Source of the DNA: an uncultured Rickettsiales bacterium
GTDB taxonomy: Bacteria; Pseudomonadota; Alphaproteobacteria; Rickettsiales; UBA8987
NCBI GenBank assembly: GCA_964445765.1
Contig: CAYULD010000001.1
Span: 516,537 to 580,536, forward strand
Reading direction: 5' to 3'
Length of the DNA: 64,000 nt
Shown here: positions 20,431-63,000 of the stretch, piece by piece
How positions within the stretch are numbered: the first letter of the stretch is position 1
Layout of the letters: each line of letters opens with the position of its first letter
Translations under genes and position numbers: made by a program
The notes under the pieces: model-generated
The model's database searches: none
The model's input: the letters and a program-made list of their open reading frames with translations, nothing else
What the model was told of the DNA's origin: nothing

Positions 20431-20763
20431 CTAAACATGGAAACTTTCACCGCAACCGCATTTGCCCTTTTCGTTAGGGTTGATGAATACAAACCCTGAT
20501 TTCATTTTTTCTTCAACATAATCCATTTGCGTGCCGATTAAATATAAAACCGCTTTTGGATCAATAATAACTTTAACGCCTTTATCTTCAACAACATCTT
20601 CAAATTTCTTAACATCATCAGCATATTCAACAACATATGCAAGCCCTGAGCAACCACCTTTACGAACACCAACACGAATACCTTCAGATTGCTTGCCCCT
20701 AGCCTCAAGCAAGTTCTTGATTCTATTTGCAGCATTTTCTGTAATTGTAATAGGTGCTTTCAT
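20431..20763 (-). CDS. iscA: Fe-S cluster insertion protein IscA (HesB family)
   Basis: Contains GGCSGLAY and the C-terminal CGCGESF. Confidence 0.9.
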   Translation of the reverse strand: MKAPITITENAANRIKNLLEARGKQSEGIRVGVRKGGCSGLAYVVEYADDVKKFEDVVEDKGVKVIIDPKAVLYLIGTQMDYVEEKMKSGFVFINPNEKGKCGCGESFHV

Positions 20764-20764
20764 A

Positions 20765-20872
20765 TTAGGTTTTAGGGGTTAGGTGTTAGGTGTTAGGTGC
20801 TAAGAATTAAAGAAAAATAGAAAAAAATTACTAAACCTTCCTAGAACCTAGCTCCTAGAACCTAGAACCTTA
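20765..20872. repeat. Heptad-array palindromic element (iscU|iscA spacer)
   Basis: The left arm is TAGGTTT TAGGGGT TAGGTGT TAGGTGT TAGGTGC. An A-rich loop follows, then the right arm CTAGAAC CTAGCTC CTAGAAC CTAGAAC. Confidence 0.75.
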
Positions 20873-20873
20873 A

Positions 20874-21288: not shown

Positions 21289-21414
21289 TGCCATTTCGCA
21301 CGAAGTGAGAAATCTGGTTGAAATATATTCTTTCTAGATTTCTCGCTTCGCTCAAAATGACACTAGTGGATACTCCTATAATTTTTTCTTACTGAAAAAA
21401 TTCGGGGTATGACA
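21289..21414. repeat. Two abutting palindromic elements upstream of iscU
   Basis: 21289-21362 (TGCCATTTCGCACGAAGTGAGAAATCT...AGATTTCTCGCTTCGCTCAAAATGACA) is a diverged member of the 19049 family. 21365-21414 (...CCTATAATTTTTTCTTACTGAAAAAATTCGGGGTATGACA) is an inverted homologue of hairpin 1 of the 19637 element. Confidence 0.65.
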
Positions 21415-41472: not shown

Positions 41473-42354
41473 TTATTTTTTTAACCCTGAAAGTAAGTTC
41501 TTAAATTCATCTTCTTTCGTATTGATATTTATCAGTTTTGTTGAAAATTTATAAGAAATTTTTTTAAGCAATTCTTGCTTGTGATTGAAATTTTTGAGGT
41601 AATTTTTCATACCCTTTTTATCGCTTGTGTTGAGAATATAACTTCTAAAACCGTATTTTAGAACAATTTTACCTACATCAGGAATGTAAAAATCACTATC
41701 ATCTATTATATTAATGAAAACTTTTTGAGTTTTAGCACCAAGTAAAAATATATTTTTTTCAAATACTTCACTGATATTTCTAAAGTCAGATATTAAAAAT
41801 AAAATATCTGGTTTTATGCCCATTCTTCTAAGGTTAAAAACTGCACCTTCAATGGAGTAACTTTGATCAAAATTATCTTTACTACATAAAATTTTTAACG
41901 CGCGATAAATATTAAATTTATGAGAAGATGGCTTAAGATAAGTAAATCTATTTTGCTGATTGCCAAAAATATAAAAACCAACTTTATCTTTTTTATTATT
42001 AGCAACAAAACTTAAAATAGCTGCAACTCTAGCGGCAACAATATTCTTAAAAGTTCCCCTAGTGCCGAAATTCATATAATCATTTTTATCAATCGCAATA
42101 ACTACATTTCTTTGCTTTTCTTCAGTGAATAACTTTAGATATAAATCATCAAGTTTAGCAGAAACCCGCCAATCTATTTTGCGAATATCATCACCAATAT
42201 TATAATTTCTTACCTCTTCAAATTCCATCCCCTGCCCTTTGAAACTTGAATTATAAGCCCCTGAAAAATTATATGGCTTATTTTTTGAGCCAAATTTTAT
42301 AAATTTTGCAAGCCCTTCAAGTTTTATAAGCTGTTTGAAATTTGGATATAACAC
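41473..42354 (-). CDS. DUF58 protein (MoxR-associated)
   Basis: Contains EFEEVRNYNIGDDIRKIDWRVSAKLDDLYLKLFTEEK, directly downstream of moxR. Confidence 0.75.
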   Translation of the reverse strand: MLYPNFKQLIKLEGLAKFIKFGSKNKPYNFSGAYNSSFKGQGMEFEEVRNYNIGDDIRKIDWRVSAKLDDLYLKLFTEEKQRNVVIAIDKNDYMNFGTRGTFKNIVAARVAAILSFVANNKKDKVGFYIFGNQQNRFTYLKPSSHKFNIYRALKILCSKDNFDQSYSIEGAVFNLRRMGIKPDILFLISDFRNISEVFEKNIFLLGAKTQKVFINIIDDSDFYIPDVGKIVLKYGFRSYILNTSDKKGMKNYLKNFNHKQELLKKISYKFSTKLININTKEDEFKNLLSGLKK

Positions 42355-42371
42355 ATCTTAAAAATTTAGGT

Positions 42372-43325
42372 TTAAGCAACTGCAACCACTTGTAAAACTC
42401 TATCAATTATATCATCATTAGAGATATTATCGGCCTCAGCCTCAAAACTTGGAAGAATTCTATGTCTCAAAACTTCATATGCAACCGCTTGCACATGATG
42501 GGGGGCAACAAATTCACTACCTTCAATATAGGCAAACGCTTTAGCACATTTCATTAACGCTATAGATGCACGAGGTGAAGCCCCAAACCTAATGAGATTT
42601 GCTAAATCTGCTGAAAAATCCGCAGGGTTTCTAGTGCAAGAAACTAATGCAACGATATATTTTTCAATTTTAGCATCAACGAAAATTTCATTTGCTAAGG
42701 CTCTAGCTTCAAGAATTTCAGGGATTGTAGTAACTGCATTTGCTTTGCTAAATTTTACTTCCGCATTTTTGCTGTTGGTTGCAAGGCGGAGGATTTCTAA
42801 CTCTTCAGAAGCTGTTGGATAGGTAATAACTGCCTTCATTAAAAATCTATCAAGCTGGGCTTCTGGCAGGCTGTATGTTCCTTCTTGATCAATCGGGTTT
42901 TGTGTGGCAACGACCATAAATAAATCAGGCAGTTTTCTAGTTTCTAAACCAACTGTAATTTGCCCTTCCCCCATTGCCTCAAGTAATGCAGATTGGACTT
43001 TTGCAGGTGCACGATTGATTTCATCAGCTAAGATAATATTGTTAAAAATTGGCCCTGCACAAAACTCAAAAGAATTTCTTTCTTTGATATAAATATCAGA
43101 GCCAGTAATGTCAGAAGGTAATAAATCAGGGGTGAATTGTATCCTCTTAAAATTAGAAGTTATCGCCTCCGCAAGATATTTTGAAGCGGTTGTTTTAGCA
43201 AGCCCCGGCATACCTTCTATCAATAAATGTCCGCCCGCAAGCAAGCAAACCAACATATTATCAATAAGGCTTTTTTGCCCTATTATTCTAGTTTCTAGGT
43301 ATTTTCTAACTTTATCTAGCTTCAT
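42372..43325 (-). CDS. MoxR-family AAA+ ATPase
   Basis: Walker A is GHLLIEGMPGLAKT; also ILADEINRAPAKVQSALLEAM and ATQNPIDQEGTYSLPEAQLDRF. Confidence 0.9.
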   Translation of the reverse strand: MKLDKVRKYLETRIIGQKSLIDNMLVCLLAGGHLLIEGMPGLAKTTASKYLAEAITSNFKRIQFTPDLLPSDITGSDIYIKERNSFEFCAGPIFNNIILADEINRAPAKVQSALLEAMGEGQITVGLETRKLPDLFMVVATQNPIDQEGTYSLPEAQLDRFLMKAVITYPTASEELEILRLATNSKNAEVKFSKANAVTTIPEILEARALANEIFVDAKIEKYIVALVSCTRNPADFSADLANLIRFGASPRASIALMKCAKAFAYIEGSEFVAPHHVQAVAYEVLRHRILPSFEAEADNISNDDIIDRVLQVVAVA

Positions 43326-43403
43326 TTGCTTTTAATTTATTTTATTTTCAATAGATTTATACCAATAGATAAAAATTTTGCAAAAAAATTAATTATTGTT
43401 TTT

Positions 43404-46400
43404 ATGCACCCACAAATTCTTGAAATTTCAAAATTTGCCTTCGCAGATGAAGATGAAATAATTTCAAATTACTTAAATCACGCCAAATTTTATAAAATAA
43501 ATCAGTCTAATATTTTTGAAAGGGCGAAAATATTTGTTGAAAATATTAGGGAAAATCTATATGGCTTCTCAATTGAAAACTTCCTTAAAGAATTTTCACT
43601 TGATACTTATGAAGGGGTTGCAATCCTCTGCTTGGCAGAGGCTCTGCTTAGAATTCCAGATAGTAAAAATGCTGATGAATTAATCAAAGATAAAATTCTA
43701 AAAGGTAATTGGAAGAAGCATCTTAAAAAAGATTCTGACTTAATGTTAAATATTTCCTCTTTCGCATTTTTACTAAGTGAGGAAGTTCTTTCACCAAGTA
43801 AAGTTGAAAATAAATTAGTCAGAAAACTAAATAATTTTTTAGAAAAAACCAGTGAGCCAATCATTCGTGAGGCTCTTAAAAAAGCCGTTGAGCTATTAGG
43901 CGGCAAATTTGTTATTGGCAATAATATTGATAAAGCCCTCAAAAAAGCTGAAGATTTATCAAAAGAAAATTATAATTTTTCATTTGATATGCTGGGGGAA
44001 GGTGCAAGAACAAAAAGCCAAGCCGAAATATATTTTAATAATTACCTAAATGGCACTAAAAATTTGATAGCAAAATGGCAGGGCAAATTATCAGAAAACA
44101 TCTTCAAAAACCCTAATATTTCTATAAAAATTTCTGCATTACACCCAAAATATGAATTACTAAAATTTGAAAAAATAAAAGAAGATTTACTTCAAAAAAT
44201 TTTACAAATTGCGGTTTTATGTAAAGAAAATAATCTCTGGCTTTCCATTGATGCTGAGGAATCTTGGCGTTTAGAAGTCTCACTTTTACTATATCTTGAG
44301 CTGATAAACCACCCTGCCCTTGCAAATTATAACGGGCTTGGTTTTGTGGTGCAGGCTTATGGAAAACGCGCCTTAAAAACTATAAAATTCTTAAATAATA
44401 TTGCAGAAAAGAAAAATATAATAATCCCCATAAGGCTTGTAAAAGGTGCTTATTGGGATAGTGAAATTAAATATTCCCAAGTTAATGGCTTAGAAAATTA
44501 CCCCGTATTTACAAGAAAATCTCATACAGATTTATCCTATTTAGTTTGTGCGGAAGAATTAATTAAATCAAAAAATATTTATCCGCAATTTGCAACTCAT
44601 AGTGCTTATTCAGTTTCAGCGATTATTGAGCTTGTTAAACATCACAAAACCGAAAGGTTTGAATTTCAAAAATTATTTGGAATGGGTGATGAATTATATA
44701 ATCAAATTATTTCAAGCTACCAATGCAGAATTTACGCTCCGGTTGGATCGTATGAAGATTTATTACCATATTTAATCAGAAGAATTTTAGAAAATGGGGC
44801 AAATAATAGTTTCATTTCTCTAGTTGCAAATAATGAAAAATCACTTGATGAAATTCTTAAATCTCCGATTGAGAAAATTGAAACAAAAAAATATACAGGA
44901 AAATTTATTCCATTGCCACAAACACTTTATAACCCTAGAAAAAACTCATCTGGCTATTGCTTTGGTAATATTATTCACACTGAAAAATTAAAATCATTTC
45001 TTGAAGCAAAAGCCGTAAATATTTTGCAGGCAAAATCTTTAATTGCTAATGAAGAAATTTCTGAAAAAACATTAAATAATGTTGATAAAGCCATTAATTT
45101 TGCAGTTCAAAATAAAAATATTTGGCAAAATTTCAGCGTTGATGAAAGATGCGATTTAATTGAAAGGCTTGCAAATCTTATTGAAGAAAATATTTCTGAA
45201 ATATTTAATATTTTAGTTTTTGAAGCGAAAAAAACTGCAAAAGATAGTATAAATGAAATTCGCGAAGCAGTTGATTTTCTTAGGTTTTACGCTAGTGAAG
45301 CCCGCAACAATTTTATTGAAACTAAAACTAGATCATATACTGGGGAGGTTACCATTACAAATTATCGTGCTAAAGGAATTTTTGTTTGTATCAGCCCTTG
45401 GAATTTCCCTTTGGCAATATTTTTAGGGCAGATTTCCGCTTGTTTAGTAGCTGGAAATCAAGTTATTGCAAAACCTGCGGAGCAAACTGAAAAAATTGCT
45501 TACTATATCTGCAAACTAGCTTTGCAAGCTGGCATTCCAAATTTTGCATTACAATTAATTTTGGGTAAAGGCAGGGAAATTGGCTCAAAACTTACCTCCT
45601 TAACTGAAATTTCTGGTGTGGTATTTACAGGCTCAACTGAAACTGCAAGAATTATTAATCAAAATCTTTCCGCTAGAAATTCATCAATTGCAACTTTTGT
45701 GGCAGAAACAGGCGGGCAAAATGCAATGATAGTTGATAGCACAATCTTACTTGAAAAAACCCTTGATGATATTATTGAAAGTGCCTTCCATTCTGCTGGG
45801 CAAAGATGTTCCGCACTTCGTGTTTGTTACCTTCAGGAAGAAATATATGATAAAATGAAAGGGCTTTTATCTGAAACAATTATTGAGCTTGAAGTTAATA
45901 ATCCGCAAGAATTTTCCACAGAAATTCCGCCGATTATTGATGAAAAAGCCAAAGAAAATTTAGTGCAACACATCAAAAATCATAAGAAAAATTATATTGA
46001 TAATTATCCAAATGAATGTTTTTTAAGGCCTGAAATTATTGAAATAAATTCTATTAACGAGCTTCAAAAAGAGAATTTTGGGGCAATATTACATATTATA
46101 AAATTCAAAAAAGAAGATACTGATAAAATTATTTCTGAGATAAACAATACTGGATACGGCCTTACATTCGGCATTCAAAGCCGTATTCAAGATTATATAA
46201 AATATGTTTGTTCAAAAATTAAAGCGGGAAATATTTATATTAATAGAAGTATGATTGGTGCAGTGGTTGAAACCCACCCTTTTGGCGGTTCTGGGCTTTC
46301 TGGCACAGGGCCAAAGGCTGGCGGCGTTAATTACATAAAACGCTTTGCGGAAGAATATACCATCACCGAAAACAATGCTGCCATTGGCGGAAATTTAGAA

Positions 46401-46412
46401 TTATTGAAATAG
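43404..46412 (+). CDS. putA: Bifunctional proline dehydrogenase / 1-pyrroline-5-carboxylate dehydrogenase
   Basis: About 1000 aa. PRODH barrel region (VRLVKGAYWDSEIK), then ALDH motifs (FTGSTETARII, ETGGQNAMIVD, AGQRCSALRV). ATG at 43404 is preferred over the TTG at 43326, which overlaps the moxR start. Confidence 0.9.
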   Translation: MHPQILEISKFAFADEDEIISNYLNHAKFYKINQSNIFERAKIFVENIRENLYGFSIENFLKEFSLDTYEGVAILCLAEALLRIPDSKNADELIKDKILKGNWKKHLKKDSDLMLNISSFAFLLSEEVLSPSKVENKLVRKLNNFLEKTSEPIIREALKKAVELLGGKFVIGNNIDKALKKAEDLSKENYNFSFDMLGEGARTKSQAEIYFNNYLNGTKNLIAKWQGKLSENIFKNPNISIKISALHPKYELLKFEKIKEDLLQKILQIAVLCKENNLWLSIDAEESWRLEVSLLLYLELINHPALANYNGLGFVVQAYGKRALKTIKFLNNIAEKKNIIIPIRLVKGAYWDSEIKYSQVNGLENYPVFTRKSHTDLSYLVCAEELIKSKNIYPQFATHSAYSVSAIIELVKHHKTERFEFQKLFGMGDELYNQIISSYQCRIYAPVGSYEDLLPYLIRRILENGANNSFISLVANNEKSLDEILKSPIEKIETKKYTGKFIPLPQTLYNPRKNSSGYCFGNIIHTEKLKSFLEAKAVNILQAKSLIANEEISEKTLNNVDKAINFAVQNKNIWQNFSVDERCDLIERLANLIEENISEIFNILVFEAKKTAKDSINEIREAVDFLRFYASEARNNFIETKTRSYTGEVTITNYRAKGIFVCISPWNFPLAIFLGQISACLVAGNQVIAKPAEQTEKIAYYICKLALQAGIPNFALQLILGKGREIGSKLTSLTEISGVVFTGSTETARIINQNLSARNSSIATFVAETGGQNAMIVDSTILLEKTLDDIIESAFHSAGQRCSALRVCYLQEEIYDKMKGLLSETIIELEVNNPQEFSTEIPPIIDEKAKENLVQHIKNHKKNYIDNYPNECFLRPEIIEINSINELQKENFGAILHIIKFKKEDTDKIISEINNTGYGLTFGIQSRIQDYIKYVCSKIKAGNIYINRSMIGAVVETHPFGGSGLSGTGPKAGGVNYIKRFAEEYTITENNAAIGGNLELLK

Positions 46413-46424
46413 ACTTTTATATAA

Positions 46425-46976
46425 TTATAAAACATCAAGCCTTAGGCTTGATTTTGTGTTAGGTAAAATTTCTTGCTCACGCAGATAAACTTTTTTTAGC
46501 TCTGTAATATTTATTCCTATTTTATCTCTAATTTCAGATAATTTTGCTTTGTTATATTTTTCAAAAGGAAATTCATAAATCTTTTCAACTTTTGATTTTT
46601 TGCCATATTCCAAACCTAAATCATAAGCCTTCATATGCCTACGAGAAAAACGATATTTTTTTGGATATAAATACATTGAAGCGGTTTTGAAAATAAACTC
46701 CTCATATTTTTTAATATCTTTGGAAGTTCCCATTGTGAAGCCAATTACAAAGGCTTCATCTTGTGGTAATAAACCTCTGCCTAAAACTATGTGAATACAA
46801 TCATGTCGCTCAAGATTTACAGCACCTTTTAACGCCAGTGGTGATTTTGGATTTTCAAATAATTTAACAATTTTACTTATATCCTCTGGGCTATTTGCAG
46901 GCAGAGTTTTTCTAACTTCTTCAAGTGTTTTATCACCATTATCTAGCTTTGGGTTCCAATCTCTATAGCTTATCAT
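46425..46976 (-). CDS. Coq4-like protein (HDxxH-x11-E motif)
   Basis: RHDCIHIVLGRGLLPQDEAFVIGF fits the Coq4-family metal motif HDxxH(x11)E. Otherwise unassigned. Confidence 0.45.
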   Translation of the reverse strand: MISYRDWNPKLDNGDKTLEEVRKTLPANSPEDISKIVKLFENPKSPLALKGAVNLERHDCIHIVLGRGLLPQDEAFVIGFTMGTSKDIKKYEEFIFKTASMYLYPKKYRFSRRHMKAYDLGLEYGKKSKVEKIYEFPFEKYNKAKLSEIRDKIGINITELKKVYLREQEILPNTKSSLRLDVL

Positions 46977-46983
46977 ATATGTC

Positions 46984-47053
46984 AGGGGTTAGTTATTAGG
47001 GGTTGGGGGTTTGGATTAAATGACGCAAGTGGTTAGTGGCACTAACCCCTAAC
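46984..47053. repeat. Degenerate heptad/hairpin element overlapping the 3' end of the ABC ATPase gene
   Basis: GGGGTTAGTTATTAGGGGTTGGGGGTTTGG...GTTAGTGGCACTAACCCCTAACC. The right part forms GTTAGTG-GC-CACTAAC and provides the last codons and TAG stop (47042-47044) of the ABC gene. Confidence 0.55.
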
Positions 47054-47965
47054 CAATGTTCTAAAAATATCTTCTAAGTTAGATTCCTCAGTTTTTATAT
47101 CTTTTATTTCTAAACCTAATTGATGAATTTGATTAATTATTTTTTCTAATTCCAACTCACTTTTTTGATAAGTAATAGAAATTGCATTACCATTATTTGT
47201 AATCTCAAAACCTTCTGGAAGTGAAGAATTTTCAACTTTATTAGCTAAATAAAAAATTATTTTTTTTACACCCAATTTTTCTTTTAGATTTTTGGTTGTG
47301 TCATTTGCAATAATTTCACCTTTATTAATCACCGCAATTTTATCGCAGAGTTGCTCTGCCTCTTCAAGATAATGCGTGGTTAATAAAATTGTTGTGCCTT
47401 CTTTGTTTAGTTTGCGAACATATTCCCAAAGCTGGCTTCTAAGTTCAACATCAACGCCGGCGGTTGGCTCATCTAAAATAATTATTGGTGGGTTATGAAC
47501 TAACGCTTTTGCAATTAAAAGCCTTCTTTTCATACCGCCTGAAAGCCTGCGAGGGTTGAAATCTTTTTTATCTTCAAGTGATAATGCTTTTAGAATTTCA
47601 TCAGTTCTTCTATTTCCTTTGCGAATTCCATAATATCCAGCGTAATATTCTAGCGTATCATAAACATTAAAAAAAGGGTCAATAACCACTTCTTGTGGCA
47701 CTATACCTAAATTAGCACGAAGTTTTTCAGGCTCTTTATCAAGGTCAATATTATTAACAAAAACCTTGCCAGAGGTTTTATTAACAAGACCCGCAATAAT
47801 ATTTATTAGCGTTGATTTGCCAGCACCATTAGGGCCAAGCAGACCAAAAATCTGCCCCTTTTCAATGTTTAATGAAATATTTTTTAAGGCTTCCTTTCTC
47901 TCCTTAGAGAATTTAGAAGTATAAGTTTTTCTTAAATCTGAAATTGATATTGCAAAATTATTCAT
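47042..47965 (-). CDS. ABC transporter ATP-binding protein (ABC-2/drug-exporter type), no adjacent permease
   Basis: Walker A is GLLGPNGAGKST, signature is LSGGMKRRL, Walker B is IIILDEPTAGVD. Confidence 0.9.
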   Translation of the reverse strand: MNNFAISISDLRKTYTSKFSKERKEALKNISLNIEKGQIFGLLGPNGAGKSTLINIIAGLVNKTSGKVFVNNIDLDKEPEKLRANLGIVPQEVVIDPFFNVYDTLEYYAGYYGIRKGNRRTDEILKALSLEDKKDFNPRRLSGGMKRRLLIAKALVHNPPIIILDEPTAGVDVELRSQLWEYVRKLNKEGTTILLTTHYLEEAEQLCDKIAVINKGEIIANDTTKNLKEKLGVKKIIFYLANKVENSSLPEGFEITNNGNAISITYQKSELELEKIINQIHQLGLEIKDIKTEESNLEDIFRTLVRG

Positions 47966-48195
47966 ACTTCATTTTTTCTAACAAAAGATTGCAATAAATT
48001 TCTAATCATAGCTTGATATGAAACATTATATTTTTGGGCTTGCTCCTTAAAAAACTCTAAAGTTTTTTTATCAAGATTAAGGGTTACCTTTTCTTTCTTT
48101 TCTATAAGTGCAAGCTCTTCAGGGCTTGGTAAAAAATCTTTAACCCTTTTGCCAAGAAATAATTTTTCATTAGTATATTTTATTTTCTTTTTCAT
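47962..48195 (-). CDS. brnA: BrnA-like antitoxin (CopG/RHH-type)
   Basis: From ATG at 48195: MKKKIKYTNEKLFLGKRVKDFLPSPEELALIEKKEKVTLNLDKKTLEFFKEQAQKYNVSYQAMIRNLLQSFV. This fits the BrnA pattern (DFLPSPEEL...VTLrLd...FK...YQt.In..L). Its stop overlaps the ABC start (ATGA). Confidence 0.65.
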   Translation of the reverse strand: MKKKIKYTNEKLFLGKRVKDFLPSPEELALIEKKEKVTLNLDKKTLEFFKEQAQKYNVSYQAMIRNLLQSFVRKNEV

Positions 48196-48316
48196 AAATT
48201 TTCTTTCCCTCTCTCCAAAAACCAGCACCAAAAATTCTAATTTTTTTGCCCCTATAAGTAAAACGAACAGTTATAATATCGTTATTTATATTTTTAGATT
48301 TATCCCACTCAAACAT
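48170..48316 (-). pseudogene. brnT: Internally deleted BrnT (DUF497) toxin remnant
   Basis: 48-codon ORF MFEWDKSKNINNDIITVRFTYRGKKIRIFGAGFWREGKKIYEKENKIY. It keeps the family N-terminus (FEWDxxKNxxN) and C-terminus (RGxxIRIxxAxxxxxxexxxY) but lacks roughly 40 central residues. It overlaps the brnA start. Confidence 0.5.
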
Positions 48317-48369
48317 AAATGCTATATTATATAAAATTACATACTTTTTGCAATATAATTATACATACT

Positions 48370-49707
48370 TTATTCTAAAAGATAATTATAAGTTCTAAAA
48401 TATTCATCTATGGCAGAAACTATTGAAGAAACAACTTTTTGTTTATGTTGAGCGGTTGCAAGCAACCTTTCTTCGTAAATATTGCTCATATAACCAAGTT
48501 CCAGTAATACTGATGGTATATCCGCACCTGTAAGCACCGCAAGGCTTGCCTCCCTATTAGATTTTGGCAGAGGTTTTGCTTTTTTACCCAAATTTTTTGC
48601 TAGAATTTTTGAAAGCTCATCTGAAATATCTTTCGTTTCGTTTTGTGAAATAAATATTAACGCCTCTTTCACATCCCTTGATTTTCCTTTCAGTGGAACA
48701 CCCCTTATAATTTCTTCATATTCAGATTTTTCTAGAAGTTTTCTTGCTTCTCTTTCAGCCCTATCTTTTGAGATTGTATAAATTGAAAAGCCCCTTACTT
48801 CTTTATTAGGGTTAGAATCTGCGTGAATAGAGATAAGAATATCCCCACCACTTCTGCGAGCAATTTTTACCCTGTCAGGAAGTGGCACAAAATTATCATT
48901 ATCTCTAGTCATTTTTACAATAAACTTTCCGGTTTTATTAAGCTCATCTCTTAATGCACGGCTATAGGCTAATACGATATTCTTTTCTTTATTTCCGAGC
49001 TTTCCAATGGCGCCGGGGTCTTTACCACCATGACCGGGATCAATCACAACCACTGCCTTCCTAGTTTTTTTAATTACTGGCTTAGTTGGAAGTGCTGAAA
49101 GGGTTATTCTATCTGCAATTTGAGGGGTAATAATTTTTTGTGGTGTAATTTTCGCAGGCGGAGTTGCAGTAATATTTTGCTGAATAATATCTGGCTTTGC
49201 TTGCTTAATATTTGAAAAACTTTCAAGCGGAACATTATGTTTGTTAATAATATCAAATACGGTTTTTCCTTCTGGATTTGAATTATTACTTATGCTTTCT
49301 TGCTGAATTTGAATATTAGTTTTTGGCTTTACTCTATCAATAATTTCCTCAGTTTTTTTGACATAATTTTGAACTCTAATTTGAGCTTTTTCTTCAACTT
49401 GTCTGTAAATTGGAAGCAAACTTGTAGGAGCAGGCAAGGATAATTTTTTTAACGCATCACTATTTATAGTTGGAGCCTTATAAACTTCCTGCTTTTTTGG
49501 CAAAACCTCTTTCACCAGAGATTTTGGAGGGTTTTTCTGAGGTTTAATTTTCTTTATAATTTTTGTTTCAACCCCTGTTTTACCAACCTCAAAAGGTGCT
49601 TTATCTTTATAGCTTTGAGTTTGTGATTGAGGCTTATTTTCTGAGGCAGAAATATAGCCAAAATTAAAAATTATAAATAAACAAAATATTTTTAATAATA
49701 ATTTCAT
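48370..49707 (-). CDS. N-acetylmuramoyl-L-alanine amidase (Amidase_3) with long Pro/Lys/Gln-rich N-terminal region
   Basis: Signal peptide; catalytic region VVVIDPGHGGKDPGA...SIHADS...ELGYMSN. Confidence 0.85.
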   Translation of the reverse strand: MKLLLKIFCLFIIFNFGYISASENKPQSQTQSYKDKAPFEVGKTGVETKIIKKIKPQKNPPKSLVKEVLPKKQEVYKAPTINSDALKKLSLPAPTSLLPIYRQVEEKAQIRVQNYVKKTEEIIDRVKPKTNIQIQQESISNNSNPEGKTVFDIINKHNVPLESFSNIKQAKPDIIQQNITATPPAKITPQKIITPQIADRITLSALPTKPVIKKTRKAVVVIDPGHGGKDPGAIGKLGNKEKNIVLAYSRALRDELNKTGKFIVKMTRDNDNFVPLPDRVKIARRSGGDILISIHADSNPNKEVRGFSIYTISKDRAEREARKLLEKSEYEEIIRGVPLKGKSRDVKEALIFISQNETKDISDELSKILAKNLGKKAKPLPKSNREASLAVLTGADIPSVLLELGYMSNIYEERLLATAQHKQKVVSSIVSAIDEYFRTYNYLLE

Positions 49708-49709
49708 AA

Positions 49710-51656
49710 CTAAATAACCCCGCTCACCAACTCTTCAATATTCTGTGCATTCAATTTTGCCGTGTTATACATATTGTAAGGCTCATCGTGATCTAAAAAT
49801 TTATCAGGCAGTACCATTGTGCGGAATTTTGTTTTATCATTTATCAAATCATTATCAGTTAGGAATTTTGCAACGAATGAGCCAAAACCGCCAATAGAGC
49901 CTTCCTCAATAGTAACAATCAATTTTGATTTTTTTGCGAATTCTGCGATTAATTTTTCATCAAGTGGTTTGGCAAATCTTGCATCAATAATTGCGGTTTT
50001 GAGATTTTTCTTTTCTAAATTTTCTGAAGCTATCTTAACTTCTTGAAGTCTTGCTCCGTAAGAAATTATTGTTACATCAAGCACTTTGTCATTCTGAGCC
50101 AAAGGCGAAGAATATGGCGAAGAATCTAGATACTTCGCTTCGCTCAGTATGACAGAAGAGTCCTTAATTATCCTGCCCTTGCCGATTTCAAGTGGCTCAA
50201 TATTTTCTGGAATTTCTATGCCCAACCCCTCACCTCTTGGAAAGCGAAACGCAATAGGTGATGAATTATGATTATTTGCAGTTACAATCATTCTTGCAAG
50301 CTCCACTTCATCAGAAGAAGCCATTAAAACAAAATTAGGCAAGCAACCAAGATAAGCAACATCAAAACTGCCGGCGTGAGTTGCACCATCAGCCCCCACA
50401 AGCCCTGCCCTATCTATCGCAAATCTCACTGGCAAATTTTGAATTGCAACATCGTGAATTACTTGATCATAAGCCCTTTGTAAAAATGTTGAATAGATTG
50501 CACAATATGGCTTAAACCCCTCAAAAGCCAAGCCCGCTGCGAATGTTACAGCGTGTTGCTCCGCAATTCCAACATCAAAAGTTCTTTCAGGAAATTCCTT
50601 ACCAAATTTATTTAAGCCTGTGCCACTTGGCATTGCTGCGGTTATTGCTAAAATTTTATCATCATTTTTTGCGAGTTTTATAAGTGTATCAGCAAAAATT
50701 TCGGTATAAGTTTTAACCGCAACGCTTGCTTTAGATTGCACTTTAGTTTCAACATCAAATTTATGAACTGCGTGAAATTTCTCTGATGAAGCCTCTGGCG
50801 ATTCAAACCCATAGCCCTTTTCTGTAACTACATGAATTAAATATGGCCTTTTATCTTTTGATTTTTTAATATTACGAAATACTGGCAATAAATGATCCAA
50901 ATTATGACCATCAAGCGGGCCTATATAATCAAAGCCCATCTCTTCAAAAAAATTGCCACCAACTACAACATCTTTGGCAATTTGCTCAGTTTTTTTAACG
51001 GCTCTTTCAAAATAATTTGGCAGATGTTTTACTGCCTTCAAAGCAAAATTTCTAAAAGCATTATAAGCACGCCCTGAAATTAATTTTGCTAAATAAGCAC
51101 GCATTGCCCCTGTTGGCGGTGCGATAGACATATCATTATCATTCAAAATTACGATTAATTTTGAATTACTATCACCTGCGTTATTAAGGGCTTCATAAGC
51201 CATTCCGGCACTCATTGCACCATCACCGATAACGGCAATTACTTCATTATCTTTATTATTTTTATCTCTAGCAACTGCCATACCAAGTGCTGCAGAAATT
51301 GAAGTGGAGCTATGCCCTGCACCGAATGGGTCATATTCACTTTCGCTAGATTTTGTAAAGCCAGAAAGCCCACCAGCCTTACGGAGTGTGTGCATTCTAT
51401 CTTTTCTGCCTGTAAGAATTTTATGCGGATAAGCCTGATGCCCAACATCCCAAATCAGTCTATCTTCAGGGGTATTAAAAACATTATGAATAGCCACCGT
51501 AAGCTCAACCACGCCAAGCCCTGCCCCCAAATGCCCACCAGTTTTAGAAACTGCCTCAATAGTTGCTTGGCGAAGCTCACCAGCTAATTGCTTCAATTCA
51601 TCATCAGAGAAATTTTTTATATCAGATGGAAAATTTACTTTGCTTAAAAGGCTCAT
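49710..51656 (-). CDS. dxs: 1-deoxy-D-xylulose-5-phosphate synthase, carrying an in-frame repeat-derived insertion
   Basis: Contains [18 protein letters not shown], the TPP motif [18 protein letters not shown], and [14 protein letters not shown]. The extra segment [27 protein letters not shown] is encoded by 50087-50154. Confidence 0.95.
50087..50154. repeat. TGTCAT...ATGACA palindromic element inside the dxs CDS
   Basis: TGTCATTCTGAGCCAAAGGCGAAGAATATGGCGAAGAATCTAGATACTTCGCTTCGCTCAGTATGACA has the same termini and GAGCGAAGCGAAGAATCTAG-type core as the intergenic copies. Confidence 0.8.
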
Positions 51657-51790
51657 TAAAAAACTAATATTTTTTCAGCCTAAAAATATATCTTAATAAG
51701 AATTTATCAACTGAGTAATTTATTAATAAATATTATTATTTAATTAAAATTATATAGGTCTAATTTTTGTTTATTGCTTGTATTAAGAAA

Positions 51791-51858
51791 TGTCATCCTG
51801 ATCCCAGAGCGAAGCGAAGGGAAAGGATCTTAGATTCTTCGCTATGCTCAGAATGACA
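51791..51858. repeat. TGTCAT...ATGACA palindromic element (upstream of dxs)
   Basis: TGTCATCCTGATCCCAGAGCGAAGCGAAGGGAAAGGATCTTAGATTCTTCGCTATGCTCAGAATGACA. Confidence 0.8.
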
Positions 51859-51870
51859 AAAAAGCAATAT

Positions 51871-57079: not shown

Positions 57080-60000
57080 TTAGCTAAAAATTAGTATATC
57101 GTTTCCAAGTTTAGCAATCAACTCTGCTTCACTTACACCTTGGAAGGTCATTGATGAGTGATCGTCAACAACACCATTTCCATTTAAGTCTATTGCAAGA
57201 ACTGCATTACCATTTGCGTCTTGTGATATAATTGAGTTAGATTGCAATTTAGCAAGAGTATCAATAGCTTGACCATTAATGTTCAAGTTTTGAATCTCAA
57301 TTTTATCATCACCTTGTCCAAAATCTGTGATTATATCATCACCAGTTGCACCATTAGCAAAGTTAAATCTGAAAGTATCATTACCAAAATTTACCATATT
57401 GCCAACGCCTTGCGAATCAAGTGCATCTTGAAGAGCAGTAACGCTATTTATATCACCAGTAATGAAATATTCTTGACCATTAACAGTGAACTTATAAACA
57501 TCACCAGTTAGCATATCATTCTCTTTGCCACCTTCAATAATGTCATTGCCAAAGTTAAACTCATTATTATTGAGCCACATATCGTCATCATTAACAGATG
57601 CACCATCTCCTTGAGTAACATTTGTACCGTTACTATACTCAATAGCAATTTCTTTAGCATCACCGATAACGTGGTCATCACCTTTACCACCTTGGAGTAA
57701 ATCATTACCAAAGTTTAGAATGTTATTTTCAAACTTAACATTCGCACTTGCAGTTGCAATACCAGCTGAACATCCATCATCAACGATTGCAGTTGCATCA
57801 CCCTGCTGACCTTTAATAAGAAGCTTATTAACGTCACCAAGTGTTAAGTCATCACCATTACCTGCATTAACTTCGTCATTACCAAAAATAATTTCACCAT
57901 TAGACATTATAGCATCTGTATTTGCTTCCGCAAATTCATCGCCACCAAAAGTTACAGGGTTTGCTTTAGCATAAGCATTGCCAGATTTCACTGATAATGT
58001 TAGATCTTTAACATCACCAGAAACGATATTATCATCTTCATTTCCATTAACAATATCATCTTCATAATCTTTATTTGGCGTAACAGTTTCTGATGTACTA
58101 GAAACTTCCTCAGGATCATTTTCTGTTTCATCTTCAGTAACAAGCGTAATGCTATCATCATTAGGGTTGTTAGGGTTACCTGATGGATCACCAACTGTTG
58201 TAGTGTTATCATCTGGGTTATCTGAAACAACTAGCGTTACAGTTGCTGAATCTTCCTCACCACCCATACCACCATTTGGTGAATCTGTCGCTATATAATC
58301 AAATTCAACATTTGCTGTTTGGTTTGGCTCTAGTTTGAAGAATTCAGAATCAAATGAGATAGTTTTATTATCTGCAGCTACAACCAAGAATAATGGTAAT
58401 AAATTTCCAGCTATCATCACATCACCATTTTGCTGAACAGTCAAGCCTGTAGCATTATGAATACTTGGTGAAAGCCTGTTAATAGCATTTGGCCCCTTAA
58501 TTGTAATGCTTGTAATCGAGCCATTTTTAATAAATAACTCACCACCATCTGGGTCATTATCATTAGCAAGAACTTGAATAGTAGTAATTTTATTTTCAAA
58601 AATTGGAATATTATCATCAACCGCATTAATATCTCGGCCGACTATAATATTATTAGCAAGTGCAATATTACTTACATCTTTACCATCTGAAGCTTTATAT
58701 CTTAGCTGAATATTTATAGCTTGATCTGCTTGTAAATATTGGAATTGAGACTTATCAAAACTATATTCACCTGTATTCTGATTCAATGTAACATCAAACA
58801 CTTTACCAGCGTGAATACCAGCATTTGCACCAAATGTAACTTTATATAATGCAACCACCGCATTAACAGGCTGACCGTTTGTAGAATTTGTTCCACCACC
58901 TCCACCAACTAATTCAACAGTTACATCAACACCATCATAGCTGTGTATTCCAGTTTCAATAGAGTAAGTTAGCGGATCATTATCAGCATCGGTAGCTTGT
59001 AACTTGAATGTTAAGCTATTTGCTTGTGCCGTATCATTCTCATCAGTAAACGAATTACCATTCCAAGTTCCCACAATTGAACTGGTAATTGCATCTTCAT
59101 CTTCTACATTTGTAGTATCTTGAGCAACTGGTTTATTATTATTGTTAGTATCTTCTTTAATATTAATGGTTACCATACCAGAATCTTGCTCACCAAGATT
59201 ATTTGGATTATCACCATCAATTTTATAGTCAAAAGTGATAGTTGTTACTGGTAAGTTAGGTTGTAATTCAACATCACCATTTGTTTTTACAACTGCAACT
59301 AAACTTGCTCCATTATATAATTCAAAACCGTTATTTGTATTAACAACTGTTAGATCTACCGCCCCAAGCTTAGGGTTACTAACTTCAATTATCTCTAATG
59401 GGTGATCATTATCATCATTAACATCATTAGAAACTATATTCCCAATATTGCCTGAATTTCCAACAATCACATCAATGTTGTCATCATTAGCCATAGGGTT
59501 ATCACCTAATATTCTAACCTTCATATTTGTTGAAATAGAAGATGAGCCATCAGATACTAATACTGGTATTGTTAAATCTGCAAATTCATCTTTTAGTAAA
59601 TATTGAACATCCGCTTTATCCACTGTGATATGCGGTTTTCCATTAATGAAACTGAATGTTAAATCAATTGGATGACCAGCAATTCCATTATAAGTTAATG
59701 TTTGTGGTATATTATTATTTGCAATGTTAACACCATTAATAGTATATTTTAATGCTGTTAATGCAGTATCAGGATCAGTAACTTTAATTTCAAATGCTAA
59801 AGTTTGGTTTAATCCGTCATCTTTATCTCCAACTAAACCACTATTATCTTTTGCATTTTCATCATCTACATAATCCATTGCACTGAAAACTGGAGGTTTT
59901 TTACCACCTGTGCAAAGACCACAAGGCTCAACAATAATAGTAACATTGGCACTATCTTGCTCACCAACTAAATCCCCATTATCTTTTCCATCAACGGTGT

Positions 60001-63000
60001 ATGAGAATGTGATTGTTCCTTGAGCACTACCATTATATGAAACCGTACCATCTTTAGCAACATTTGCTATAACAACACCATTCATTAATAAATTGAATGA
60101 GCCATTAGGAATTTTGACAGAAACAAGATCAATATTTCCATTAAACTTAGCATTTTCAACTTTAATTACCTCTAGAGCATCTCCGTCTGGATCAATATCA
60201 ACTCCATTTCCATTATCTCCAGTAATAATATTGCCAATTACACCAAAGCTTGTAGTTTTGATATTTAAAAGGTCATCAGTAGCATTTGGAATACCACCAT
60301 GAATTGAAATTAAGACTGTTCCGTTAGCTGAAACACCATTTACATCTGTAACAGTGTAGTCAATACTTATTGCTTCAATTTGACCTTGTGATAGCCACTG
60401 CAACTCTTCAGTTACTAAATTAATTGTTCCATCATTATTGTTAATTATGGAGTAAACCATACCATTAACTGTAACTGTAGCAGGAACAGTATAAGTAAGA
60501 GGGCCATTATTGCTAGATGCTGGAAGAACAAACTTTAATTCACCATTAACACCTATTGAATCATTTGGATTAACAGCTTTTAAGCCATCTTCATCATCAG
60601 CATATTTTGTAACACCAAATGGGGTTTCAGGACCAGAATAGAACTTAACAATTACCTCTGCAGTATCTTCTTCGCCTGAGCTATTCGGCTGATTTGGAAT
60701 TAAATTATTTGGCAACCCATCAACTTTATAAGTTAATTTAAGATCACCGCCCGGGCCACCATTCCTAGTTATCGTGCCATCTGCATTAACTGTAGCAACT
60801 AAATCATTGCCAAGTTTTAATTGATAAGCACCATTTACCAATTCAACTGCAAGTGCCTGACCAGCAATTGATGCGTTTGTAACTGAGATAATTTCTAAAG
60901 AATCACCATCTGGGTCATTGTCATTAGCTAGAATACTTGTGGTAGATTGACCAATTAAATATTCATTATTTGTGAAATTATCATCATTAGCAACAACACC
61001 CACACCATCAATTGTTATTGTGATATCACTCTCCGCACTTGCTCCACTCGGATCCTCAACCTGATAATCAAACTTGAATGTTACACTCTCATTCTCCTTC
61101 AAGTCTTGGAACTCAGCAGGGTCAAATACCGCATAACCTAAACCATTTATAACCTCTACACTTATTCCTATCGTCCTTGTTGTTCCATCAGGAAACACCA
61201 CTAACACTGATGCTGGCGCACTATATATCAACGGATCTCCATTAGGATCACTCGCAGGCAACAAGAATGCTAACTTACCTGCCCCCTGATTATCTCCATC
61301 ATCATTCGATACTCCTATTATTCCATCCTCATCATCCCTCACCTTCGTCACTCCCTTCTCTGGCACCTCAGGTGGATTGTTACCTCCATGTAAACATACA
61401 ACTACATTCGCACTCGCCTGCTCACCTAAACTCGTCGCAACACCAGGCAATGAATCAGCTGTATATGCAAATGTAAATTCATTAGCATTAAACACACCTA
61501 AATTCTTCAACTTACCATCCGCTTGCAATATCGCAAACTCCTTATTATCAAAGAAGAATGAAAATGTCCCATCAGGATTAGCAACAACTTGTGCTGCATT
61601 TCCATCTAAAAATGCATTTGTAACCGTGATCAACTGGTCAACCGCATCTCCATCTGCATCACTATCATTATCAAACACACTCTTAATTGATGTCTGACCC
61701 GCACCTATTATGTCGTTTGTCCAATTATCAAACAATGCCACAGGCGATACACCATCAATTGTTATTGTGATATCACTCTCCGCACTTGCTCCACTCGGAT
61801 CCTCAACCTGATAATCAAACTTGAATGTTACACTCTCATTCTCCTTCAAGTCTTGGAACTCAGCAGGGTCAAATACCGCATAACCTAAACCATTTATAAC
61901 CTCTACACTTATTCCTATCGTCCTTGTTGTTCCATCAGGAAACACCACTAACACTGATGCTGGCGCACTATATATCAACGGATCTCCATTAGGATCACTC
62001 GCAGGCAACAAGAATGCTAACTTACCTGCCCCCTGATTATCTCCATCATCATTCGATACTCCTATTATTCCATCCTCATCATCCCTCACCTTCGTCACTC
62101 CCTTCTCTGGCACCTCAGGTGGGTCATTAGGGTTATCATTGCTATTACCAACTATTCCTATTGTTGCTTTCGCATCCGCACTAGTTAAACCATTAGAATC
62201 TGTCACATTATACTTCAATACAAATTCTATCGCTTCTTTGTCATTTAAAAACTGCATATCTGCCGTTCTAAACGCAAACTCCTGACCTCCATTATGCACT
62301 AACTCAAACACCCTACCAGCATACGCTCCAGAAGTTATCTCATAAGAATAAACTCCAGCTACCGCTGTCGGCGACACCGTAACATCCATTCCATCAACAA
62401 TATAAGAACCAGTAACTATCTTATATACCACAGGAATATTATTCGTTACTACATCACTAAACTTAAACCTTAAATCTGTAAGATCATTATTTATATCCTC
62501 ATTCTTATCTGCATATTGCGTGCCTCCAGGCGTTACACCAACTATCCCTCCTGTATCTATATCATCCTCATCATCCGCCACCACTATATTATCATTCAAT
62601 ATTACCGGCGGATTACCCTTATCATTGCTATTACCAACTATTCCTATTGTTGCTTTCGCATCCGCACTAGTTAAACCATTAGAATCTGTCACATTATACT
62701 TCAATACAAATTCTATCGCTTCTTTGTCATTTAAAAACTGCATATCTGCCGTTCTAAACGCAAACTCCTGACCTCCATTATGCACTAACTCAAACACCCT
62801 ACCAGCATACGCTCCAGAAGTTATCTCATAAGAATAAACTCCAGCTACCGCTGTCGGCGACACCGTAACATCCATTCCATCAACAATATAAGAACCAGTA
62901 ACTATCTTATATACCACAGGAATATTATTCGTTACTACATCACTAAACTTAAACCTTAAATCTGTAAGATCATTATTTATATCCTCATTCTTATCTGCAT

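Follow-up and report, generated by a model that had tools for sequence, protein, structure and literature searches.

The window that we analysed is a stretch of 64,000 nucleotides from an uncultured Rickettsiales bacterium. On its reverse strand, at positions 49710-51656, ORF and profile matches locate an intact dxs gene, which encodes a 1-deoxy-D-xylulose-5-phosphate synthase (Dxs) of 648 aa, the enzyme that opens isoprenoid synthesis. This ORF matched the dxs equivalog model TIGR00204 over its full length (E 4e-237, 788 bits) and contains the Pfam domains DXP_synthase_N, Transket_pyr and Transketolase_C. Inside the gene, at positions 50087-50154, there is an inserted hairpin of 68 nt, running TGTCATTCTGAGCC...GCTCAGTATGACA, in which two stem-loop units, each tagged TGTC, form an inverted dimer. 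The first-pass annotation had described here a palindromic unit read in frame within an intact ORF, and both sequence and translation confirm this: the insert is read from V-I-L-S to A-Q-N-D in a stop-free frame, and it is translated as residues ~501-523, flanked by (S) and (K).

Three further copies were found between genes. The one at 19049-19102, between hscB and hscA, is a compact form of 54 nt; the one at 21289-21362, between iscU and a tRNA gene (at 21487), has 74 nt and a longer loop; and the third, at 51791-51858, has 68 nt and lies upstream of dxs, 135 nt from its start. In order to compare them we used a covariance model, R1, which was made from 67 copies of other phyla and included no sequence of the window. 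R1 recovered exactly four sites in the window, with E-values from about 1e-12 to 3e-6, namely the copy in dxs (46 bits, E 1e-9) and the intergenic ones in the same order (55.7 bits, E 4e-12; 45 bits; and 35 bits, E 1e-6), and beyond these four copies the scan of the window gave nothing under E 0.08. Thus, a covariance model, which the annotation had proposed as a check, found the four sites that it had assigned to a single family. Furthermore, when as many as 3 mismatches were allowed, the right arm of 20 nt occurred at 5 sites in the window versus 0 in 100 shuffles. The tag is TGTC in three of the four window copies and TGCC in the other. Rfam at the gathering threshold assigned no family to the window repeats, and on canonical foreign copies it gave only sub-threshold matches to miRNA-precursor hairpins. 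The CGTC-1-like pattern GTCATYCC...GGRATC did not occur in the window.

Regarding the anatomy of the family, each element consists of two units of ~27 nt arranged as an inverted dimer, and a unit is composed of an unpaired (T/C)GTC tag, a stem starting with AT, a loop of 3-5 nt and a short tail. The layout of the unit is TGTC-AT-stem-loop-stem-AT and its DNA reads TGTC-ATTCTGAGCGAAGCGAAGAAT-CT. The stem, ATTCTGAGC / GCGAAGAAT, has 9 positions with AT at the start and AT at the end, the canonical loop has 3 nt (GAA, GCA, GGA, GTA or AAA), and the tail, CT or CTA, stands ahead of the dyad or spacer. Among 121 foreign copies, 80% have T and 14% have C as the base preceding GTCAT, and every element has GTCAT at its start and the complement, ATGAC, at its end. 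All the copies examined in this respect (4/4 in the window and 124/124 foreign) were inverted dimers, and their spacers measured 0-20 nt. As its tags face outward, a dimer can alternatively close into a single long hairpin, and pairing between its two tags is possible as well. In the long-hairpin model 99% of the cells were paired and the arms covaried, one pair showing all four Watson-Crick types, and none of 500 shuffles reached the observed covariation. The flanks of the copies tend to prolong the palindrome. The stem within the unit is supported as well, by four kinds of compensated variants: CCT/AGG (7 cases), CTT/AAG (8), ACT/AGT (1) and GTT/AAC (1). The copy at 19049-19102 has one unit with the CTT/AAG variant; we considered whether its dinucleotide swaps reflected decay of the long hairpin and rejected this, because the swaps are compensatory inside one unit.

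In the dxs copy, unit 1 (50087-50115, forward strand) is read from the sequence as the tag TGTC, the stem ATTCTGAGC, the loop CAAAG, the stem GCGAAGAAT and the tail AT. It is the only unit with a 5-nt loop, and its 9-position stem comprises 7 Watson-Crick pairs and a tandem G.A, with TCT/AGA complementarity. A 12-nt tandem duplication, GGCGAAGAATAT / GGCGAAGAATCT, at 50104-50115 and 50116-50127 (forward strand), is an in-frame length change with respect to the compact 54-nt form (copies 19049-19102 and L016). Unit 2 (50128-50154, reverse strand), located by a unit pattern scan, reads on the mRNA strand TGTC, ATACTGAGC, GAA, GCGAAGTAT and CT, and carries the compensated variant ACT/AGT replacing TCT/AGA; its variant positions are mismatches in the long-hairpin model, yet they are paired inside the unit. 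In the mRNA sense the dxs copy folds as RNA at -27 kcal/mol (z = -5.0). Neither the insert peptide nor the translations of the consensus matched any NCBIfam or Pfam model at E <= 10; NCBIfam presumably includes domain models of the Rickettsia palindromic elements (RPEs).

An alignment with orthologues, another check that the annotation had suggested, placed a gap where the element is. At the codon level, the two nearest relatives (L001 and L002, GCA_033762595.1) showed one clean gap of 69 nt, although the edges of the insertion cannot be fixed to the nucleotide, given an element of 68 nt versus a gap of 69 nt and a loop that has itself diverged. The net gain is a multiple of three and amounts to 23 residues, so that the repeat-derived insert reported earlier stands while its size, given as about 25 residues, has to be lowered. 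The closest Dxs relatives, 91-93% identical, do not have the segment, and neither do those at 83-85% identity. In alignment A2, all 17 orthologues have 2-5 residues at the insert point, and the segment from PLEIGKG to SYG measured 23-28 aa in 116 of 121 Dxs sequences and 33-50 aa in the other 5. The alignments with E. coli 2o1s and Arabidopsis 7bzx split at query residues 500/528, and the solved DXS structures, plant and bacterial, are without the segment. Judged from these comparisons, the segment in dxs is a derived insertion. The opposite history, an ancestral Dxs segment lost elsewhere with a coincidental similarity to the repeat, could appeal to nothing but a slight length variation of this loop, as a few Dxs sequences have 2-8 extra residues there. 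Its probability is practically nil, and we take the gap in the relatives, at both levels of identity and in the solved structures, together with the match at E 1e-9 to a model made from other phyla, to have refuted it already.

It might also be argued that a repeat copy was mis-joined into dxs during assembly. Repeats do break assemblies in this region: the Logan contig L003 maps to 41608-51859 and ends at the outer edge of the copy 51791-51858. Nevertheless, the NCBI assembly and the Logan assembly of SRR12997673 agree on the gene (an identical 648-aa protein, with 100% identity over 10,252 nt), although the two may have reads in common; the dxs copy bears marks of its own, the 12-nt duplication and the ACT/AGT variant; and both flanks carry on the Dxs alignment exactly and in frame. 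We therefore consider an artefact extremely improbable.

Regarding the host gene, the 648-aa ORF is of full length, without frameshift or stop, every invariant Dxs column is retained, and the TPP and catalytic motifs align with the solved DXS structures. The dN/dS of dxs was 0.065 at a dS of ~0.8 (versus L001/L002), a value that is an average across both lineages and not of the period after the insertion. At the level of sequence, these data demonstrate an intact gene under strong purifying selection, and from the dN/dS, the full match to the dxs model and the aligned catalytic motifs we read the insert-bearing dxs as functional. The genome is probably reduced and host-associated, to judge by its Rickettsiales-like relatives, and genomes of this kind gather repeats and decaying genes, which would suit a dxs that was already inactivated and intact in appearance only. 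However, a pseudogene in the making does not fit with the full-length ORF, the low dN/dS at such a dS, the complete set of invariant columns and the 788 bits to the equivalog model, and we regard it as very unlikely.

The structure prediction that the annotation had proposed, an AF2 model of Dxs (pLDDT 79.6), puts the segment in a predicted loop at the start of domain III. Residues 504-522 are coil with a pLDDT below 50, and this low-confidence coil sits between strands 495-499 and 526-533, with a pLDDT of 93-97; the superposition of the AF2 monomer on solved DXS structures was only moderate (TM 0.5-0.6). In the model, the insert forms a loop where the first beta-strand of domain III turns tightly into the second, and its low pLDDT and the strand topology suggest that the loop is surface-exposed. 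Because the insert lies in a tight beta-turn, the 23 extra residues would loop out of an otherwise intact fold.

The reading that we prefer, with a probability of roughly 0.85, is that a small non-coding hairpin copy of REP type landed in dxs and survived there because it was harmless. The copy would have been inserted with a net 69 nt that kept the frame, its stop-free reading would add 23 residues looping out of the turn of domain III, and the enzyme, its fold otherwise intact, would have stayed under purifying selection, the insert itself being probably neutral or nearly so.

A selected role of the insert has to be weighed against this. The peptide could be adaptive through regulation of Dxs, oligomer contacts or stability, or the mRNA hairpin could tune translation or decay of dxs, with the loop being a selected site. 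In line with such a role, the same loop holds CGTC-type dimers in a second clade, which is alphaproteobacterial (P0060, P0096 and P0080, with a shorter remnant-like insert in P0101), and between P0060 and P0096 the 58-nt insert, which ends ...GCAAT-CCA, is 91% identical whereas the genes are 71% identical. Moreover, both units of the window copy retain their stems, one of them via a compensated change, and in the mRNA sense the hairpin folds stably. Nevertheless, recurrence is also expected if few sites of an essential enzyme tolerate 23 residues, and the conservation of an insert can stem from gene conversion with genomic copies or from repeated insertion. The closest relatives thrive without the insert, the peptide is a low-confidence coil whose sequence is just what the repeat encodes, and the same family sits in unrelated proteins. 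Therefore, we consider adaptation unlikely and keep to the survival of a harmless copy.

GTAG REPs and REPINs with their RAYTs have reportedly been studied by Nunvar in 2010, Bertels and Rainey in 2011 and Ton-Hoang in 2012, and Rickettsia palindromic elements reportedly by Ogata in 2000 and 2002. Compared by sequence with published groups, the element in dxs is built like the members of the CGTC-tagged REP superfamily (Di Nocera, De Gregorio & Rocco 2013, BMC Genomics 14:522; PMC3733652), in which the in-gene phenomenon is already described. That superfamily is defined by a CGTC tag (the variants TGTC and CCTC being accepted), a stem of 8-9 bp, a loop of 4-5 nt and a CCA tail; it is mostly alphaproteobacterial with members in several phyla, and it includes the Rickettsia elements RPE-4 and RPE-6, which in R. 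conorii are CGTC-4 and CGTC-1 respectively (PMC3733652). In-frame genic copies are known, with dimers encoding 20-30 aa, and no transposase is known to be associated (PMC3733652). The window family resembles it in the YGTC tag, matched by the TGTC/CGTC starts, in the complementary A and T of the first two stem positions, in units of ~25-30 nt that are mostly inverted dimers and fold singly or as one stem-loop, and in the in-frame copies, with 23 aa gained in dxs and also in a Y-family polymerase (L026), and three copies of the family in frame in a type III Mod methylase (L123). The peptides are alike too, those listed for CGTC REPs running from VI... to ...ND/...HD/...MT (VIPAKAGI, ...RFRGND) and ours from VILSEAK to ...AQND. 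On the other hand, the canonical loop of the window family has 3 nt (GNA) instead of 4-5, two of the 9 stem positions form a tandem G.A/A.G pair, the tail reads CT or CTA next to a CCA consensus that the P0060/P0096 insert does carry, and the two units complement each other, which makes the dimer a near-perfect palindrome. Besides, its stem sequence was not found in the supplementary files of that paper, dxs is not among the targets reported there, and the 5 phyla reported for CGTC REPs contrast with about 15 for the window family alone.

[quoted passage not shown] Different RPE types have been reported at one locus of orthologous genes, with sizes down to 68 nt (PMC3767692), and different element types likewise occur in the Dxs loop. 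However, the host here is a Rickettsiales-labelled MAG lineage with a MEP pathway gene and not a Rickettsia, and, compared by the listed peptides, R. conorii CGTC-1/4 (VIPAKAGI, SFPRKRES, WIPWSNHGMT) differ from VILSEAK, so that the window family would be at most a sister family. RPE-1/2/3 resemble the dxs element in being in-frame insertions tolerated by the fold, but with 100-150 bp they are two to three times longer than its 68 nt and have a conserved peptide module. The annotation had regarded the family as distinct from RPEs, which holds for these long types but not for the CGTC superfamily including RPE-4/6, with which it shares the (C/T)GTC-AT...AT-GAC(G/A) ends, the hairpin units and the inverted dimers. 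It had also named RPEs as the only precedent, and this has to be abandoned: in-frame intragenic copies have been described in numerous species for REPs of the GTAG and CGTC types (PMC3733652) and for ERIC, BOX, QMITE1 of Coxiella and the Anabaena MITEs (PMC10969869; PMC5896051). As the CGTC superfamily includes RPE-4/6 and has known in-gene copies, RPEs are neither the only precedent nor unrelated.

The GTAG REPs/REPINs are hairpin units with a 4-nt unpaired tag, mobilised by RAYT transposases, their inverted doublets being the likely mobile form (PMC3733652). The window family is similar to them in the unpaired 4-nt tag of its hairpin units, the inverted doublets, the lack of target-site duplication and the occasional in-frame copies, and differs in the tag (YGTC versus GTAG) and in that no RAYT/IS200-like gene lay beside any copy examined; no RAYT-type transposase has been reported for the CGTC group either (PMC3733652). 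MITEs (ERIC, BOX, QMITE1, Anabaena) are also small non-autonomous repeats that sometimes form in-frame ORF fusions, but they derive from an IS, measure 100-400 bp and carry both terminal inverted repeats and target-site duplications, whereas the element of the window family has 54-74 nt, no duplication and no parental IS that we could find.

Concerning the way in which the copies spread, no direct repeats of the target-site type flanked the 121 foreign and 4 window copies. An all-against-all clustering of the ORFs in 120 loci of 8 kb gave no recurrent transposase family near the copies and no RAYT, IS200-like or Y1 transposase among their neighbours; the recurrent neighbours were ABC transporters, kinases and SDRs. 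We found no IS-like element of greater length in which these ends surround an ORF, and the search for an autonomous parent, with arms 100-2500 nt apart around an ORF, returned only coincidental neighbours, such as those in L123, where one gene contains several copies of the repeat. Small GIY-YIG ORFs stood beside CGTC-type copies in two loci (L125 and L126) and were rejected as a general association; a jackhmmer search with them, which covered every ORF of the loci and of the window, gave no further occurrence. Since target-site duplications are missing, the unpaired tag of the hairpin units is conserved, and GTAG REPs, which RAYT transposases cut, offer an analogy, we suggest that copies may be moved in trans by an HUH-type enzyme acting on single-stranded DNA, a mechanism that rests on analogy since no mobilising gene was found near the copies. 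As for mobility itself, in a relative MAG, pgk and a small ORF have a copy between them at a site that is empty in the window, and this MAG is without the window's copies inside and upstream of dxs; we count these differences between sites, together with the assembly break at a copy, as evidence that the family is mobile.

For an essential and drug-targeted enzyme, a first beta-turn of domain III that, as predicted, accommodates 23 unstructured residues would be a natural experiment in tolerance, and as an insert has been tolerated there in at least two lineages independently, the turn may be a permissive place at which to engineer or tag the protein. The range of in-frame "protein-coding palindromes" stretches in this way past Rickettsia and takes in an uncultured Rickettsiales-like lineage as well as genes of CPR bacteria and Gammaproteobacteria, and these palindromes are tied to the CGTC REP superfamily.

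The comparison of hosts indicates that the family is not lineage-specific. It is nearly unchanged in about 15 bacterial phyla, across which the ~26-nt arm TGTCATTCTGAGCG-NA-GCGAAGAATCT is conserved almost letter for letter, and its hosts include complete chromosomes and cultured Bacteroidota. Such near-identity raises the question of how a 54-nt hairpin is kept or moved between phyla with no plasmid, phage or transposase. One possible but rather doubtful answer is that universal host machinery or an unknown horizontal vehicle maintains the family, and that the occupation of the Dxs turn by three different CGTC-type dimers reflects targeted insertion or REP-by-REP replacement and not mere tolerance. 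In BLAST searches the 54-nt consensus matched nothing in collections of plasmids and phages, and a literature search with the repeat strings (GTCATTCTGAGC etc.) and the encoded peptides returned only chance matches to primers. The pattern scan of IMG/VR found 1 contig, and the scan of metagenomes for the CTT/AAG variant led to contigs of 45-53% GC, which belong to organisms other than the lineage of the window.

The palindromic repeat that the first-pass annotation described as read in frame through dxs is indeed there, and we consider it very probable (roughly 85%) that a (C/T)GTC-tagged REP hairpin dimer was inserted in frame and has been kept since then as a surface loop that a functional Dxs tolerates. 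The 68-nt sequence at 50087-50154 is as that annotation gave it and lies inside a 648-aa ORF on the minus strand (49710-51656), and its proposed kinship with three intergenic copies was borne out. A covariance model trained on 67 copies from other phyla, with zero window sequences, recovered exactly the four intervals noted: 19049-19102 (55.7 bits, E 4e-12), the copy in dxs (46 bits, E 1e-9), 21289-21362 (45 bits) and 51791-51858 (35 bits, E 1e-6). The scan of the 64 kb gave no further match below E 0.08; these E-values are rough, whereas the bit scores are not. Furthermore, if up to 3 mismatches are allowed, the 20-nt right arm occurs at 5 sites in the window and at none in 100 shuffles, a resemblance well above chance level.

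The ORF encodes a full-length Dxs (TIGR00204, E 4e-237, plus Pfam DXP_synthase_N, Transket_pyr and Transketolase_C), the nearest Dxs being 91-93% identical ('Rickettsiales bacterium' MAG GCA_033762595.1). A single 69-nt gap is the sole nucleotide-level difference in the insert region from the two nearest dxs relatives. The gap anticipated among orthologues was found, since all 17 in our alignment have just 2-5 residues at the insert point; the segment around the insert measures 23-28 aa in 116 of 121 Dxs sequences. Against the Arabidopsis and E. coli DXS structures the alignment stops at about 500 and restarts at about 528 (query numbering), with 2-7 residues of their own between. The extra repeat-derived segment is therefore inserted as proposed, but the net gain is 23 residues and not 25. 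The element has 68 nt and the gap 69 nt, and the junction is not fixable to the base because the turn itself has diverged between lineages (dS about 0.8).

The identical protein is also present in an NCBI assembly (687-kb contig) and in a Logan assembly of SRR12997673. The contig from the latter matches the window at 100% identity over 10,252 nt and terminates at the edge of copy 51791-51858, where a multi-copy repeat would be the expected cause of an assembly break. The insert-bearing dxs has no stop codons or frameshifts, its dN/dS is 0.065-0.067 against both relatives, and the invariant columns, the TPP motif and the catalytic motifs of Dxs are all retained. Judged from its sequence, the gene is functional ('alive').

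In an AlphaFold2 model of the protein (103 homologues, mean pLDDT 79.6, pTM 0.80) residues 504-522 are coil with pLDDT below 50, while the strands beside the insert (495-499 and 526-533) and the remaining domain III have pLDDT 93-97; a shallower model agreed with this. The top structural matches are DXS entries (E 1e-57), yet their TM is just 0.5-0.6, so that we trust the local topology and not the domain packing. The insert is thus predicted as a low-confidence coil loop in domain III, where the first-pass annotation had considered a surface loop.

Regarding the anatomy of the element, its compact form (e.g. 19049-19102) has 54 nt, TGTCATTCTGAGCG-A-AGCGAAGAATCT / AGATTCTTCGCT-T-CGCTCAGAATGACA, and can be folded as one long hairpin whose two arms covary. 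One arm pair shows all four Watson-Crick types in the 67 foreign copies (CG 37, AU 17, UA 6, GC 4), and the observed covariation was reached by 0 of 500 shuffles. Each arm is also its own small stem-loop, TGTC / ATTCT-GA-GC / GNA / GC-GA-AGAAT / CT, in which TCT/AGA is swapped for CCT/AGG (7 units), CTT/AAG (8), GTT/AAC (1) or ACT/AGT (1). This single-arm stem-loop is supported because the compensatory variants are confined to one arm. The ACT/AGT variant belongs to the dxs copy, in its mRNA-sense unit, where two positions scored as mismatches by the long-hairpin model pair with each other within the unit.

Read from the sequence, the dxs copy comprises unit 1 (50087-50115, with a 5-nt loop) and unit 2 (50128-50154), with a 12-nt tandem duplication (50104-50115 / 50116-50127). 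Translated from VILS, the compact form meets a TGA in the right arm. The 14 additional nt of the dxs copy put this arm into the open frame A-Q-N-D, and therefore the variant is what selection on an essential gene would permit.

No direct repeats flank any copy, and the flanks tend to prolong the palindrome, often lineage-specifically. In three host groups the universal core hairpin is nested in lineage-specific outer inverted repeats: Ktedonobacteraceae (L006, L009, L013, L022, L036), Planctomycetaceae (L007, L025, L027, L042) and Abditibacteriaceae (L017, L037, L038), the outer repeats being ACCAGGATCGG...CCGATCCTGGT, TTTTCTTGGC...GCCAAGAAAA and GCAGTTT...AAACTGC. The CTT/AAG variant is shared by window copy 19049, locus L002 of the related MAG and unrelated metagenome contigs (L129-L153, 45-53% GC), and some of these contigs have another left arm (GGACAGGCTTTGAGC..., CTCGAGGGCAGGCTT...) in place of TGTCAT.

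The element has the architecture by which Di Nocera et al. (2013, PMC3733652) define the CGTC-tagged REP superfamily. [quoted passage not shown] The intragenic peptides of the supplementary list (VIPAKAGI, SFPRKRES, ...RFRGND, VIAGLDPAIH...ARVKPAHD; PMC3733652) start with VI and end with ND/HD/MT, and likewise the dxs insert reads VILSEAK...AQND.

The first-pass annotation had set this unit apart from the Rickettsia palindromic elements (RPEs) as a different family, and had named RPEs as the only precedent. Neither view held. Actually, RPE-6 of R. conorii is CGTC-1 and RPE-4 is CGTC-4 (PMC3733652), and ATGAC is the hallmark of RPE-4/6/7 (Matsutani et al. 2013, PMC3767692), which together with the CGTC architecture makes the element a relative of the short RPEs, at most as a sister family. 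RPEs can be as short as 68 nt, and different types of them occupy one locus in orthologous genes (PMC3767692). In-frame intragenic repeats are documented well beyond Rickettsia, and the insert in dxs is an instance of an already known phenomenon.

Nevertheless, the element differs from CGTC REPs in its usual loop of 3 nt, in the tandem G.A pair of its stem and in its tail, CT where theirs is CCA. Its stem sequence is absent from the supplementary files of PMC3733652, and we assign it to the CGTC superfamily as a new family or variant, not as one of CGTC-1 to CGTC-4. We rejected an RPE-1-type element (the copy has 68 nt and no protein-family model matched), a MITE (no target duplication, no parent IS), a GTAG REP as the identity of the element, and an Rfam family, as it matches none.

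In the related MAG, a 54-nt copy (L002 1244-1297, 57 bits) separates pgk from the small ORF that lies upstream of dxs, a site without a copy in the window, and the window copies between the small ORF and dxs and within dxs are both missing from that MAG. These differing positions are evidence of mobility. The same MAG also bears a CGTC-1-like dimer (L001 4921-4974, TTTCATCCCCGTGAAAACGGGGATC...GATTCCCGCTTTTGCGGGAATGAAT), of which no copy was found in the window. Because the hairpin units have a conserved unpaired tag and no target duplications, we draw an analogy with GTAG REPs cut by RAYT (HUH) transposases, and the element may move by a similar single-stranded-DNA route. GCGAAGC in each arm is presumably the very stable d(GCGAAGC) mini-hairpin, which would fit a single-strand DNA intermediate. 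No mobilising enzyme was found near the copies in this analysis, nor is one known for CGTC REPs.

The family is not lineage-specific. Its exact two-arm pattern occurs in at least 120 stretches of species-representative genomes and, among the matches listed, in about 15 phyla by record labels, to be read with caution for MAGs: Armatimonadota, Chloroflexota, Planctomycetota, Patescibacteria, Bacteroidota, Pseudomonadota (alpha, beta, gamma), 'Deltaproteobacteria', Acidobacteriota, Bacillota, Melainabacteria, Actinomycetota, Nitrospirota, Hydrogenedentota, Deferribacterota and Binatota. Complete chromosomes are among these listed matches, as are cultured Mucilaginibacter and Hymenobacter. The pattern constrained just the outer 12 nt per arm, although the interior GAAGAATC and GATTCTTC are both present in 87 of the 124 copies among the matches listed. 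This near-identity of a non-coding 26-nt arm across phyla is unexplained. The consensus had no match in 72,556 plasmids and 50,697 phage records, the family was found in one IMG/VR contig, and only ubiquitous gene families recur near the copies.

Two other genes also carry in-frame copies of the family. A Saccharimonadales Y-family (UmuC-like) polymerase (L026 1278-2636, minus strand) has one of 69 nt between the IMS and thumb domains (2042-2112, VILSSSEESTQIQTRFFATAQND), which is reminiscent of the excess of REP inserts reported for repair genes. In a Cardiobacteriaceae MAG, the Mod methylase of a type III restriction-modification system (L123 4165-6684, minus strand) has three full ones (4332-4401, 5730-5808, 5964-6046), besides degenerate copies and a fourth copy just downstream of the gene.

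The same beta-turn of Dxs is occupied by other CGTC-type REP dimers in another alphaproteobacterial clade, formed by the proteins P0060, P0080, P0096 and P0101 (73-78% identity), whose next relatives are without any insert. The inserts in dxs of P0096 (L125 11552-11656) and P0060 (L126 11549-11653), CGTC-ATTGCACGG-CTCGT-CCGTGCAAT-CCA...GATGAC, are the textbook CGTC unit, in which the stem has 9 bp, the loop has 5 nt and the tail is CCA; further CGTC-type copies lie near dxs in both loci. That of P0080 (L127 ~11546-11620) is CGTC-ATCCCGGC-GAAA-GCCGGGAT-CC...ATCCCGTTTTACAACGGGATGAC, where the stem has 8 bp and the loop is GAAA, and P0101 has a shorter insert at the same turn. In the alignment, all Dxs inserts start within about one codon of one another. 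Between P0060 and P0096, nucleotide identity is 71% over dxs but 91% over the 58-nt insert; constraint might account for this, as might repeated insertion or gene conversion from other copies. Either Dxs has very few permissive sites, of which this turn is one, or REPs attract REPs, an alternative equally posed by the Rickettsia data (PMC3767692). The most notable points are this repeated use of one Dxs loop and the conservation of the family across phyla.

Small GIY-YIG ORFs (96-105 aa) adjoin or overlap CGTC-type copies in L125 (19615-19641, 19704-19997) and L126 (1970-1996, 1971-2288, 9730-10020), and one of them overlaps the dxs start; the window and the other 120 loci yielded none.

The window also contains a second, unrelated repeat family of TAGG-type heptamers (TTCTAGGTGCTAGG...) at 10253-10367, 11777-11891 and 20758-20873, one copy lying between iscA and iscU; these repeats form palindromes, and at 11797-11891 the 35-nt arms are 91% complementary. 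Perfect 300-nt direct repeats (for example 61002-61301 = 61749-62048; 62126-62425 = 62612-62911) and many shorter in-register repeats occur at 57500-63700, probably within a very large minus-strand gene for a repeat protein. The 23S and 5S rRNA genes are at 2937-5988 (minus strand) without an adjacent 16S gene in the window; Rickettsiales typically have a split rRNA operon. Finally, a 40-nt inverted repeat pair (12806-12845 / 13209-13248) is 85% complementary, with its arms 363 nt apart.
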